Shown here in pieces: positions 49,304-54,088 of a stretch of 64,000 nucleotides of DNA (its first letter is position 1; each line of letters opens with the position of its first letter). A model generated the notes under the pieces. The model had not been told where the DNA came from and did no database searches. It worked only from the letters and a program-made list of their open reading frames with translations. Position numbers and translations under genes: made by a program. The stretch is from assembly GCF_054482525.1 (NCBI RefSeq), contig NZ_CM137006.1; one strand, written 5' to 3'.

Positions 49304-49978
49304 CTTGCACCTATCATAAAATTAAAACAAGTTGATAGTAGTCAAATAACAACCAATTAAATACACAATCATAATCAGGATGATGTGCATTTATATTTTT
49401 ATACACAAAATTATAGTTTGCAAATTTTAATAAATTTCATTTAAGATTAAATTATTATATGTATATTGTTTTTTATTCTAACGTATTTCAAAGTTACATT
49501 TTTCAACGCTTACTATGCTTTTTATTAACATAAACTCACTACAACGCACCTGAAACCTCTTGCTATATATATGTCAACCGTTTGAATTTAAAATAAAAAG
49601 AGTATCATTTTTACTTGCATTTCTTATCAAGTCACATTCAACAACAGTAAAAAAACATTATTAGAACCATTCAATTAACAAAAAACCAACATCCAGCTTG
49701 CTTAATTTTTCTTTATTAAACGATATTGAAAATCAATTGATAAAATACATCTAAACAACCTTTTTGGGCGCAAAAGCATAACATCAAACAAACAAATAAC
49801 ACACCGAAAAAACTCACAATTAATAACCTATGATATACATACTGTTTATTATGGTTGAATAAGCCACTCGATATCTGGTGCTACGGAAGTGTCCACACGG
49901 TTTAGCAGCACCCGATACTTTTTCCAGGCTTCCAGCAACGAGTTTTCTTCCTCCGTTGCATATACAGCTCACCTTTTT

Positions 49979-50314: not shown

Positions 50315-51355
50315 TTATTTAGACGCAAGCGCCGCATCAATTGCAGATAATCTTTGTCTTAATTCTGCGTTTTCTTCTTCCAGTGCTGTTATTCTGTCGT
50401 CTGACTCTCTGGCTACCTGAACAAGCAAGCCAGTAACACCAGAATAATCAACTGTGTAATAACGTTCACCTTCTTCACCTTCCGATCCGCTTGCACCGTC
50501 CTGATATTTCATTGCGGAACCTACAACTTCTGGGATTGCTTCCAGAGCTTCCTGTGCAATGACTCCAGCATAGGGCATACCGTTTTCTTTAAGCGTGTAT
50601 GTATAGCCGTTCATTTTACGGATGCGGTCGGTTGCATTATCGATCACCTGAATGTTGTCTTTCAGATCCCGGTCGGAATGCTGGTTAAATGCGGTGGCAT
50701 GACATGCACCATTAACGCTTAACATATAGGTGTTATCGGTATTTTTCTGCGCATAGAACATATAAGCGCCACCATCAGCACCAACTTCATATACAACCGG
50801 ACGGGTAGAGTTACCCCACAAACTAGTAGTAGCGCCAGAATGAGCGGTTCCCTGTGTGTTGATTGTCATGGTTGACCCATGATTGGCATATTTGATTTGT
50901 AATGTGTCTGTGCAGTCAAACTTAATAAGCGCGTTACTTCCCCGCACACCATACGACATGAGACAGTTCCCCATCTTAAGGTAACCATCACTGCCTGGAA
51001 AAATTAATGTTCCGCCGTAAAGATCGCTAAAATCCCAAAAGATACCTTTTGTTCCATTGTGTGTGACAATCCTTGTCATTGTATCTTTTGTACCGTCAAT
51101 ATTTTTTCTGGTGTACATCTCACTATAAGCGTTTTCGGTTTCTCCTGTCTTATTTGACAAGTGAATCTTACCGCTAAATATAGTTCCAGTGGTCGGCAAT
51201 GTCTTTTGATTATAGATTACATTGCAATAACTATTCCATGTTGTTTTATTGTCTACATATGATTTTGTTGCGTAGCTTCCTTGATCGTTTTTTAATTTGC
51301 TAACGTCGGATTTTAGCGTTTTGATATCATCAGGAATTACTGTCGATGTAGCCAT
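50315..51355 (-). CDS. Tail fiber-like protein with C-terminal peptidase S74 intramolecular chaperone domain
   Basis: 346 aa; C-terminal DLKDNIQ...GYTYTLKENG...ALEEENAELRQRLSAIDAAL typical of self-cleaving chaperone domains. Confidence 0.6.
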   Translation of the reverse strand: MATSTVIPDDIKTLKSDVSKLKNDQGSYATKSYVDNKTTWNSYCNVIYNQKTLPTTGTIFSGKIHLSNKTGETENAYSEMYTRKNIDGTKDTMTRIVTHNGTKGIFWDFSDLYGGTLIFPGSDGYLKMGNCLMSYGVRGSNALIKFDCTDTLQIKYANHGSTMTINTQGTAHSGATTSLWGNSTRPVVYEVGADGGAYMFYAQKNTDNTYMLSVNGACHATAFNQHSDRDLKDNIQVIDNATDRIRKMNGYTYTLKENGMPYAGVIAQEALEAIPEVVGSAMKYQDGASGSEGEEGERYYTVDYSGVTGLLVQVARESDDRITALEEENAELRQRLSAIDAALASK

Positions 51356-51364
51356 TTTTCTTCC

Positions 51365-51646
51365 TCACATCCAGCCACGAAGTTGATGCTCAACAGCAAC
51401 CGCGTATTCATCGAATAATGACGATATTTGCGAATCATTAATGATGCGCACGTTTACAAAATATCCGTCCTCCTTAACACATACCGGCTCGCCATCTTCA
51501 GTAAGTTCTCCGGTTTCTTTGTACACATTACCTATCACGTCAATAAGAATATCATCCTGCATCGACTCGTCATCATAATAGCCAATACTCTCCATAAAGG
51601 CCGAAAAGTCGGCCCTGTCGGCAAATTTGAGTGTTAAATCTTTCAT
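51365..51646 (-). CDS. Hypothetical acidic protein (prophage tail fiber region)
   Basis: 93 aa; start overlaps upstream stop (TAATG). Confidence 0.45.
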   Translation of the reverse strand: MKDLTLKFADRADFSAFMESIGYYDDESMQDDILIDVIGNVYKETGELTEDGEPVCVKEDGYFVNVRIINDSQISSLFDEYAVAVEHQLRGWM

Positions 51647-52263
51647 TAGATTGACTCCCCCATCTGAGCATCAGTCAATGCCTTGTGCCATATTCTGAAA
51701 TTCCTGACATGACCAAATAAATGACGCAACCCGGCTGTAGTCTGGCCTCCAATACGGATAATTGCGGTGTTCTGAATATAGGACCATGTGGCTTTCTTTT
51801 CGCTGGATATACGCCCGTTACTTACTGAGCACGTAGACTGATCTGACTTTACACGCATCCCCATAACCATTTTTTCAAGCGATGCGTTTTCGTTTACCCG
51901 TCTGTTAGCCAAACCTATATCGCAATAAGGAAATCCGTCGTAATCTGTTGAACGACCGAAGCCAAGAATAATAGCCGCTCCGGTTTGATGACCGCCGGTA
52001 TCAAAAACACGCGGTGCTGCATTTGGCGTTTTATACCAGTTCTTATGTACCTCACAAAGAACTGTAAAAGGAAGATTATAAAGGTTATTCTTGATTGAGA
52101 CTGTCACCATATCGCTTGCGCGAGTGCTTGCAATTATATCAGTTACAATAAATGACGAAGCACTTGATCCACCTTCCACTTGTGGAGTTGCGATATCCAG
52201 ATAGTCTCCAGATGCTGTGCCTGAACCTTTTACTGGAGCATATTGAACCATCGCACCAATCAT
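51646..52263 (-). CDS. Tail fiber distal segment, in frame with stf beyond an amber codon
   Basis: 205 aa ORF in same frame as stf, separated by TAG and 14 sense codons. Confidence 0.5.
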   Translation of the reverse strand: MIGAMVQYAPVKGSGTASGDYLDIATPQVEGGSSASSFIVTDIIASTRASDMVTVSIKNNLYNLPFTVLCEVHKNWYKTPNAAPRVFDTGGHQTGAAIILGFGRSTDYDGFPYCDIGLANRRVNENASLEKMVMGMRVKSDQSTCSVSNGRISSEKKATWSYIQNTAIIRIGGQTTAGLRHLFGHVRNFRIWHKALTDAQMGESI

Positions 52264-52305
52264 GCTCTCTGTATCTAGTGCATTAATTGTAGCCTGATAG
52301 AAAAT

Positions 52306-54030
52306 CTAACCAGTAGCCTCATCTTTTACAGCCTTTGCAATAATACGATTTGCTGCACCACCAGTCTTATCAATTACAAGTGTTGATAAATTGAGGTAAG
52401 CATCTCCCAAAAAAGTGTAAGTAGAACCATCATGATGTTCAAATCTTAAACGACACCTTATATTTTCAACATCACTTCTGACACGGCATGAAATGGTCAC
52501 ATATTTTTCATCACCTGTGACATCAAATCCTTTACTGCCAGAAACCGTTACGATATTAATCGCACTTGTCTGATCAATAAGAGTATCTTTTACAGTAAAT
52601 CTCCCATAAGTAAAATTAAAAGAATCCGTGGATATTTCTGTGAGTTCCAGATTGCCTGACTTATTCCATTTAGATGGATTTGTTGAATTAAGCAGAAGAT
52701 TAGTTCTTTGCCCCTCAATAAGCAGGCCATCACGTTCAAATCGCGGCTCGTCAATGGCAGCCTCTGTCAGTACACCAGATTTATTAATATAGGTTGCTTT
52801 CGATGCGCGTTTAAACTTAACAACCTTGTCACCAGGCATCGTTATTTCATCATCACCAATAACAATCTTTTTATATGATGGCGAAAAGCCCGTAATCATA
52901 TCCAGTGAATCGTTAAACGGTATCCACACATCGGGAAGCGGCTGCAAAACTTGTTTATACGGCTCCGCAGCCTGGCTTGCATACTCTCTGGCTGCGTCTT
53001 CACTTGCTTTTGCAGCCGTCTGGCTTGCAGCGGATGCTTTCGCCGAGTTAGCCGCCGCAGTCTCGCTCGCCTTTGCGTTGGTTTCACTGGTTTTTGCAGC
53101 TTTTTGACTGTTGGCTGATGCAGTGGCAGAAGAAGCCGCCGCACTTGCAGAACCAGCTGCGGCACTCTCGCTTTGGGCTGCAGCATCCTGACTGTTTTTC
53201 GCCGCAGTTTCACTGGCTTTGGCATTCGTTTCGCTGGTCTTCGCTGCCGTCTGGCTGGACTTTGCGTTAGTTTCACTCGTCTTCGCAGCTTTCTGGCTGT
53301 TAGCCGCAGCAGTTGCTGATCCAGCTGCTGAAGTCGCAGAACCGGCTGCCGCGCTCTCGTTTTGGGCTGCTGCAACCTGGCTGTTTTTTGCCGCAGTTTC
53401 ACTGGCTTTGGCATTCGTTTCGCTGGTCTTCGCTGCCGTCTGGCTGGACTTTGCGTTGGTTTCGCTCGTCTTTGCGGCTGTCTCGCTATTTTTCGCGTTG
53501 GTTTCTGATTTTTTGGCTGCTGCCGCGGAGTTTGCTGATGCAGTCTGTGAGGTCGCTGCCGCCTGTGCACTATTAGCTGCATTCGTTTCTGAGGTTTTCG
53601 CCGCGTTCTTCGATGATGCCGCTGCAGTTTCGGATTTCTTTGCCGCCGCTGCGCTCTGAGAGGCGGCTTCAGCGTTGCGTGCCGCTTCTTCCACCATTTC
53701 CTCAAAACGACGCAATGCCTCCGGCATGACATCATCTTCCGTCATGGCACCGAGAAAATCATTCAGCGTACCTGGTCTGGAACCTTCATAGACGGTAATG
53801 GTCCCGGCATGCGAAGGCGGAAAACCTTCAACCAGCAGGGTGACGCTGTACTGGCCATACTCAACATCCATGCTGTAACGCCCGGCTTCATCAGGATTTT
53901 CAGAGGCCACCGTGTTCACCAGTACCGTGGTGCTGTTACGCTTTGCCTTCAGTTGAATAGTGCAGTTCTGTATTGGTTTTCCCGCACCATCTTTCAGCAC
54001 ACCTGAGATTTTTACTGCTGCCATATCCAC
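52306..54030 (-). CDS. stf: Side tail fiber protein Stf (N-terminal and shaft portion)
   Basis: N-terminus MAAVKISGVLKDGAGKPIQNCTIQLKAKRNSTT matches lambda Stf; Ala/Ser/Thr-rich repeats; ends at TAG 52306-52308. Confidence 0.85.
   Translation of the reverse strand: MDMAAVKISGVLKDGAGKPIQNCTIQLKAKRNSTTVLVNTVASENPDEAGRYSMDVEYGQYSVTLLVEGFPPSHAGTITVYEGSRPGTLNDFLGAMTEDDVMPEALRRFEEMVEEAARNAEAASQSAAAAKKSETAAASSKNAAKTSETNAANSAQAAATSQTASANSAAAAKKSETNAKNSETAAKTSETNAKSSQTAAKTSETNAKASETAAKNSQVAAAQNESAAAGSATSAAGSATAAANSQKAAKTSETNAKSSQTAAKTSETNAKASETAAKNSQDAAAQSESAAAGSASAAASSATASANSQKAAKTSETNAKASETAAANSAKASAASQTAAKASEDAAREYASQAAEPYKQVLQPLPDVWIPFNDSLDMITGFSPSYKKIVIGDDEITMPGDKVVKFKRASKATYINKSGVLTEAAIDEPRFERDGLLIEGQRTNLLLNSTNPSKWNKSGNLELTEISTDSFNFTYGRFTVKDTLIDQTSAINIVTVSGSKGFDVTGDEKYVTISCRVRSDVENIRCRLRFEHHDGSTYTFLGDAYLNLSTLVIDKTGGAANRIIAKAVKDEATG
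53201..53578 (-). repeat. Tandem 189 bp duplication inside stf
   Basis: Near-identical 63-codon units starting at 53201 and 53390. Confidence 0.8.
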
Positions 54031-54088
54031 TCCACAAAAAAGCCCGCCTGAACCGGCGGGCTGTCATAACACTGTGTTACCTGGCTAA

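Follow-up and report, generated by a model that had tools for sequence, protein, structure and literature searches.

In a lambdoid prophage of Escherichia coli, the side tail fibre gene (stf) is cut in two by one in-frame amber codon. This interruption is very probably a recent loss-of-function nonsense mutation. The gene is on the minus strand of the stretch of 64,000 nucleotides that was analysed here (the window). In the sequence of events that we propose, a G-to-A change at position 52307 turned a TGG codon into TAG, which would end translation at codon 573 of 792. The resulting protein of 572 aa would retain the anchor and the shaft of the fibre; its terminal domain would be incomplete and a second domain would be absent. 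The 3' part of the gene (51646-52305, minus strand) is not expected to be made on its own and should now be untranslated, with no separate product from its 219 sense codons.

Layout of the interrupted gene

A first-pass annotation of the window had described an stf open reading frame of 574 codons, which ends at a TAG at 52306-52308 and is followed by 14 sense codons and by a 205-codon ORF that runs to 51646, where its stop overlaps the start of the next gene. All of these elements are present as described, and only the start of the gene has been corrected. The frame contains 574 codons when it is counted from a GTG at 54030 and 572 codons when it is counted from an ATG at 54024, two codons downstream. 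Homologues start at the position of this ATG, as does the gene in the NCBI annotation; the ATG and not the GTG is therefore likely to be the start of stf. Counted in this way the 5' part of the gene (52309-54024, minus strand) consists of 572 sense codons. It encodes an N-terminal domain that anchors the fibre to the tail (aa 3-132; 54018-53629), an Ala-rich repeat shaft (approximately aa 105-352) and the first 220 or so aa of a distal module. The premature amber codon at 52306-52308 (minus strand) is codon 573. Beyond it, the 3' part begins with the 14 sense codons at 52305-52264 (IFYQATINALDTES), continues with the 205-codon ORF from an ATG at 52263, which is in frame with stf, and ends with a TAA at 51648-51646. 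The last base of this TAA is also the first base of the ATG with which the next gene begins (TAATG). The 3' part codes for the last strands of a first beta-sandwich and for an entire second lectin-like domain. A read-through product would have a length of 792 aa if it started at the ATG and of 794 aa if it started at the GTG.

Over the same 1.3 kb (approximately 437 codons) the stf frame contains only two stops, namely the TAG and the terminal TAA, while the other two frames contain 21 and 45. The open frame past the TAG is thus not a product of chance.

The TAG allele is private to one genome

The 2,385 bases of stf were used as a megablast query against 5,426 complete E. coli genomes. A near full-length match was present in 176 of these, the best of them at 99.2% identity. 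In LR-60 the gene is annotated as one CDS of 792 codons. It differs from the gene in the window at 18 of the 2,385 bases, and one of these differences is TGG versus TAG at codon 573. The alignment shows TGG at this site also in SMS-3-5 and in a T5-like Salmonella phage. Because the near-identical relatives carry TGG, a codon for Trp, the lesion is a single G-to-A transition on the coding strand at 52307.

The TAG allele itself was found in none of the 176 E. coli genomes that have the region; a 201-nt probe centred on the stop gave a best match of 99.5%, and never of 100%, in the set of 5,426. A 32-mer containing the TAG occurs in no viral contig of IMG/VR, while the same word with TGG occurs in seven stretches of DNA. 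In a look-up among approximately 15 billion proteins the exact products of 572 aa and 205 aa were each recorded from one contig only (5,135,068 bases). The TAG allele is private to one genome. Since the stop is absent from every relative examined, including all phage records, none of which is split here, it is not a programmed feature.

An allele that comes from a single assembly, and that differs by a one-base substitution from near-identical relatives, could also reflect an error of assembly or base calling. The true codon would then be TGG and the gene would be intact. This is the main rival to a genuine mutation, and we consider it unlikely. When long-read assemblies of E. coli contain systematic substitution errors, these are usually in homopolymers and at Dam or Dcm motifs; the site in question is part of no homopolymer and of no Dam (GATC) or Dcm (CCWGG) motif. 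Also, the gene contains a second private substitution, P643S (position 52098), only 210 nt from the TAG, which suits real divergence of this copy; other homologues have Ser at this position.

P643S is one of two further codon differences from the nearest relative downstream of the stop. The other one, M788V, is a shared polymorphism. Two differences, one of them shared and one private, are too few events to bear on whether selection on the distal part is relaxed.

The stop falls within a conserved domain

The first-pass annotation had proposed that the joined translation be aligned with full-length homologues. Such an alignment, with 48 diverse homologues (26-95% identity) and the query (49 sequences in total), shows continuous homology across the TAG. 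The Trp at codon 573 is kept in 37 of the 49 sequences, and the remainder have aromatic or aliphatic residues at this position. The conservation extends well beyond the stop: 15 of the 34 columns that are conserved to at least 90% are located downstream of it, and the C-terminal ends of all 48 aligned homologues fall within 0-2 residues of the same position. When the TAG is read as Trp, aa 2-792 of the protein match positions 1-793 of the 793 positions in the phrog_1419 profile with 1473 bits. The end-to-end match to this profile, the unsplit homologues and their common C-terminal end together indicate that the gene is one unit. This upholds the central claim of the first-pass annotation, namely that one tail fibre gene is cut by a single in-frame amber codon: homology runs through the site of the TAG without a break in all relatives examined, and the ancestral codon is TGG.

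The NCBIfam model NF048003, 'phage head spike fiber domain', matches aa 435-636 (52722-52117) with 57.9 bits (cut-off 36) and spans codon 573. The sequence of PDB entry 6tb9, the head spike fibre Rcc01080 of the gene transfer agent (GTA) of Rhodobacter capsulatus, aligns across the stop with an E value of 6e-5. The first beta-sandwich is homologous in the two proteins, and the homology includes a Gly-Trp pair, kept in Rcc01080, which the mutation has destroyed in stf. The similarity is a distant one, and Rcc01080 differs from stf in that it is on the capsid and not on the tail and in that it does not have the second domain arrangement.

An AlphaFold2 model of the distal module was obtained with a pLDDT of 92.5 and a pTM of 0.88. 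Its fold matches include the Pa193/E217 tail fibre, pentraxins, CBM40 and the binding domains of BoNT. In this model the Trp is residue 220 and stands at the start of strand 221-228, so that translation would end after strand 208-214. Five further strands of this region and the whole second sandwich would be lost past the stop. According to the alignment and the predicted structure, the stop interrupts the first beta-sandwich, which folds as a unit and is conserved. With the stop at this point the 572 aa product would end in an incomplete domain, and the truncated protein is probably non-functional. The gene has the features of a nonsense pseudogene: the stop is premature relative to a sense codon in relatives, it falls within a conserved domain, and the remainder has no independent start. 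An intact reading frame is missing in this stf alone, with its TAG at codon 573; all homologues examined are continuous there.

Restart, read-through and suppression

The NCBI pipeline annotates the two halves as separate CDSs (WP_458911860.1 and WP_458911879.1), neither of which has a pseudogene label, and an ATG is present 14 codons past the stop. This could mean that the locus contains two functional genes, one for a short fibre of 572 aa and one for an independently translated protein of 205 aa. Such an arrangement is extremely improbable, as no homologue is split at this boundary and as the beta-strands on either side of the break belong to a single domain in the model. Furthermore, no ribosome-binding site was found before ATG 52263 when its anti-Shine-Dalgarno pairing was compared with that of five ATG-start genes of the locus; the value is -2.9 kcal/mol, as opposed to -6.0 to -8.4 kcal/mol for J, lom, stf, the 93 aa gene that follows stf (orf93) and the gene for a second fibre. 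Two separate genes in homologues, with a ribosome-binding site before the second, is what the first-pass annotation had named as evidence against its own reading, and neither was seen. In the protein cluster of the 205 aa product all other members listed are shorter, and most of them are labelled 'partial' by NCBI.

A restart of translation at ATG 52263 or at ATG 52251 was rejected for want of Shine-Dalgarno pairing. An internal promoter for the 205-codon ORF was rejected as well, because the matches in a consensus scan do not exceed those in shuffled sequences; the sole minus-strand match between the start of stf and ATG 52263 is approximately 520 nt upstream of that ATG.

The first-pass annotation had offered two explanations for the interruption, a decaying prophage gene or a gene that depends on amber suppression. 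A decaying or inactivated gene is favoured by our results, and suppression found no support. In the latter case the gene would be functional because a suppressor tRNA is encoded elsewhere in the genome or because termination is leaky, and the prophage would make a mix of short and full-length fibres. It is true that the downstream frame is fully open, with only the two further codon differences from relatives, and that the base after the stop is an A; this context was reportedly found in the studies of Bossi and Miller to be well suppressed where a suppressor exists. However, wild E. coli strains seldom carry amber suppressors, the stop is conserved in no relative and the allele is private. 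ARAGORN detected no tRNA gene in the 64 kb window, which led us to reject a suppressor tRNA in cis. We also rejected an RNA structure that promotes read-through: the sequence of 112 nt that begins two bases before the stop contains no stable structure and folds no better than shuffled sequences (z = +0.39). Taken together, a gene that is kept functional by suppression or leakiness is very unlikely. Natural read-through of UAG at a low level would still produce a small amount of full-length protein.

A lambda-type fibre with a different distal module

The gene is located in the slot of the late operon directly after J (58235-54756) and lom (54688-54089), with stf starting at 54024; lambda stf has the same slot. 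Its N-terminal region (aa 3-132) is a prophage tail fibre domain of family PF08400 (E 7.3e-67; 223.9 bits with a cut-off of 26.6). The anchor and the Ala-rich shaft are homologous to those of lambda, with 59% identity over approximately 340 aa (aa 3-329 aligned to orf-401). The likeness to lambda Stf is thus limited to the proximal part of the protein. It does not extend to the distal half, which has no significant similarity to lambda orf-314, the gp37-like tip; the best E value is 3.4, and homology of the distal half with lambda Stf was rejected. Since orf-314 is unmatched, the similarity in length, approximately 794 aa against approximately 774 aa, on which the earlier comparison had relied, is a coincidence. 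Judged by the sequence of its anchor and shaft the protein is an Stf, yet its distal module is of another kind.

The gene is a mosaic, in which a lambda-type N-terminal anchor and an Ala-rich shaft are fused to a distal module of 439 aa (aa 354-792; 51649-52965, minus strand). The module has a G+C content of 40.8%, compared with 55% for anchor plus shaft. It consists of two tandem beta-sandwiches of the concanavalin-A-like or jelly-roll type and is presumed, from this fold and from its context, to bind the receptor, a surface glycan.

The module is carried by many unrelated coliphages at the end of their lateral fibres. More than 2,000 proteins end in an intact copy of it (2,532 matches in a word index and 2,024 representative matches). 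At least 80% of the module is covered in 203 phage records, and among the matches listed it is found by tblastn as a single uninterrupted piece. The carriers include lambdoid phages, Drexlerviridae, Seuratvirus, T5-like phages and rV5-like phages. Lateral fibres of phrog_1419 and phrog_5939 which share the two-lectin module are, for example, the 'tail protein' of Salmonella phage FGS017 (vB_Si_CECAV_FGS017), the 'lateral tail fiber protein' of the BASEL phage KurtStettler, and fibres of the Drexlerviridae swan01 and tuinn and of the lambdoid phage 2G7b. All of these fibres are uninterrupted, and their N-terminal anchors differ with the tail to which they are attached. At the protein level the distal 439 aa are 93% identical in FGS017 and 77% identical in KurtStettler, and the identity decreases to approximately 33% in other phages. 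The DNA of the module is 92.8% identical in FGS017, a T5-like phage, where the module protein is encoded after the LtfC-like collar gene of the L-shaped fibre, that is in the position of LtfA. The locus is a clear case of the exchange of fibre-tip modules among lambdoid, T5-like and Seuratvirus phages, a kind of exchange which is already recognised in the field.

The two genes that follow stf

The stop of stf overlaps the start of orf93 (51365-51646, minus strand), a gene for a 93 aa protein of unassigned function which belongs to phrog_1361 (E 5e-46). The gene has its own Shine-Dalgarno sequence, GGGGAG, with a pairing energy of -8.4 kcal/mol. It is always found after the module. The next gene (50315-51355, minus strand) encodes a second, short tail fibre of 346 aa, which matches phrog_4563 end to end and has a C-terminal intramolecular chaperone domain (PF13884, Peptidase_S74; E 6e-14). 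This second fibre is in the position of LtfB in T5-like phages. FGS017 and KurtStettler have the same arrangement, with the module, then a gene for approximately 92 aa with an overlapping start, which is the homologue of orf93, and then a second fibre. The first 16 or so aa are conserved among the second fibres of these two phages and of the prophage, and the remainder diverges.

An anchor-bearing first fibre followed by an anchorless second fibre is also the gene order of LtfA and LtfB in phages DT57C and DT571/2, and the second fibre of FGS017 is labelled with DT571/2 LtfB as its top match. The LtfB of DT57C is attached to the virion via LtfA (PMC4728585, PMC10713586). The gene order and the conservation of the first 16 aa of the second fibre suggest, by analogy, that this prophage may have had a branched fibre of the LtfA/LtfB type.

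This arrangement raises the question of whether the truncation has re-tooled the fibre instead of destroying it. The 572 aa anchor and trimeric shaft might still carry the 346 aa second fibre, which would turn a branched fibre with two specificities into a fibre with a single one. We regard this as quite unlikely. It would take the conserved N-terminal 16 aa of the second fibre, which look like a docking peptide, as just that, and the docking site would have to be upstream of codon 573.

Comparison with laboratory lambda and consequences

The closest known parallel to the nonsense mutation in stf is found in lambda itself. In lambda PaPa a frameshift has split stf into orf-401 and orf-314, while Ur-lambda has an intact Stf of 774 aa. 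Both in lambda PaPa and here, a point lesion in the middle of the gene removes the distal, receptor-binding part. The two cases differ in that the lesion here is a nonsense substitution and not a frameshift, and in that it is an allele of a natural isolate and not of a laboratory stock. The prophage also differs from lambda in having no intact tfa chaperone gene after the fibre; only a relic with the last 36 codons is present (49849-49959, minus strand), which is 99% identical to an annotated tfa pseudogene in strain SB0258h1. A prophage fibre gene interrupted by a nonsense codon is an already known kind of event.

Particles of this prophage would have no working side fibre tip, as is the case for laboratory lambda, and the strain probably yields particles without working side fibres. 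Loss of the tip presumably impairs adsorption. By analogy with laboratory lambda, such particles could still infect through J: in the passage of PMC12617516 that cites Hendrix and Duda 1992, laboratory lambda with its stf frameshift has no side fibres, still forms plaques and is not reduced in plaque counts. The lateral fibres of DT57C are needed on hosts that bear O-antigen (PMC10713586), and the use of Stf by Gifsy-1 depends on O-polysaccharide (PMC12312913). Because the T5-like and Gifsy-1 fibres are needed for cells coated with O-antigen, loss of the fibre could, by analogy, matter in nature. On the same footing, the lesion may mark an early stage of the process by which the prophage becomes trapped in its host.

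The practical consequence is for annotation. The two NCBI proteins, one of which is labelled 'hypothetical', should be merged into a single pseudogene. Beyond annotation the lesion is of little significance.

Prophage context

The window is part of an E. coli chromosome and is 100% identical to SCU-102 over 24 kb. No prophage separates icd from iraM in SCU-102; in the window the end of a lambdoid prophage adjoins iraM.

The other 11 genes of the tail region that were compared, namely T, H, M, L, K, I, J, lom, orf93, the second fibre gene and a gene of approximately 100 aa, have the lengths that are annotated in a related prophage with 96% identity; the exception is gene I, whose ORF in the window is longer by 33 codons at its 5' end than the annotated gene. 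As these 11 genes are full length and stf alone among the genes compared is broken, the lesion stands by itself and is probably recent.

Between lom and stf, just 5' of the start of stf, a consensus scan gave a terminator-like hairpin (54041-54062, minus strand); the number of such hairpins in the region is not above that in shuffled sequences. The end of the prophage carries a cargo of a GNAT acetyltransferase, an XRE-type regulator, ompT and appY.

A three-gene fibre cassette of distinct base composition

The G+C content of the fibre locus (54024-50315, minus strand) is 55% in the anchor and shaft portion of stf, 40.8% in the distal module and 42% in both orf93 and the second fibre gene. The step is abrupt and falls within stf itself. 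Because of this internal step, the cassette of distal module, orf93 and second fibre gene is marked, on compositional grounds, as a unit of horizontal exchange. A 36-codon relic of the tail fibre assembly gene tfa is retained at 49849-49959 (minus strand), with 99% identity to an annotated tfa pseudogene of strain SB0258h1; its persistence suggests that the present three-gene cassette took the place of an older stf-tfa distal end. The relic is flanked by appY on one side and by the fibre cassette on the other.

In the window (50315-51646) and in the phage loci L003 (4298-6328) and L006 (4799-6619), a protein of about 92 aa (phrog_1361) is always encoded between the module and the second fibre gene; these proteins share 42% identity across phage families. 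Similarity among the second fibres is confined to about 16 residues at the N-terminus (M.T.T.IP.DI..LK), a stretch resembling a docking peptide. The second fibre gene of phage KurtStettler is annotated as 'putative lateral tail fiber chaperone'.

Other changes in stf

The same stf allele is interrupted in E. coli SMS-3-5 (NC_010498.1; L002, 3007-6612), where an IS3-family element is inserted about 10 bases 5' of the stop. The gene has thus undergone an independent knock-out there. The window also carries a CCA to TCA change (Pro to Ser) at codon 643 (52098, minus strand), 210 bases 3' of the TAG and absent from all close relatives compared; both it and the TAG mutation are G:C to A:T transitions. 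Among diverse homologues this residue is Pro in 30 of 49 and Ser in four others.

The Ala-rich shaft of Stf (53000-53650, minus strand) consists of near-perfect repeats (AAKTSETNAKSSQTAAKTSETNAKASETAAKNSQ...). Several of the differences between the window and its relatives lie in this shaft, as would fit repeat-mediated exchange, and both strands of the region show long spurious ORFs.

The prophage end and its neighbours

The prophage end (44749-49303) carries genes for a GNAT acetyltransferase and an XRE-type regulator together with ompT and appY, and adjoins iraM on the icd side. The 96% related prophage of SB0258h1 is located at the ybcH-envY-ompT-appY (DLP12) locus. Either ompT-appY is travelling phage cargo, or prophages of the two sites have recombined. 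An IS200/IS605-family transposase gene (43652-44161, minus strand) lies between ycgX and iraM, a position shared by strain SCU-102.
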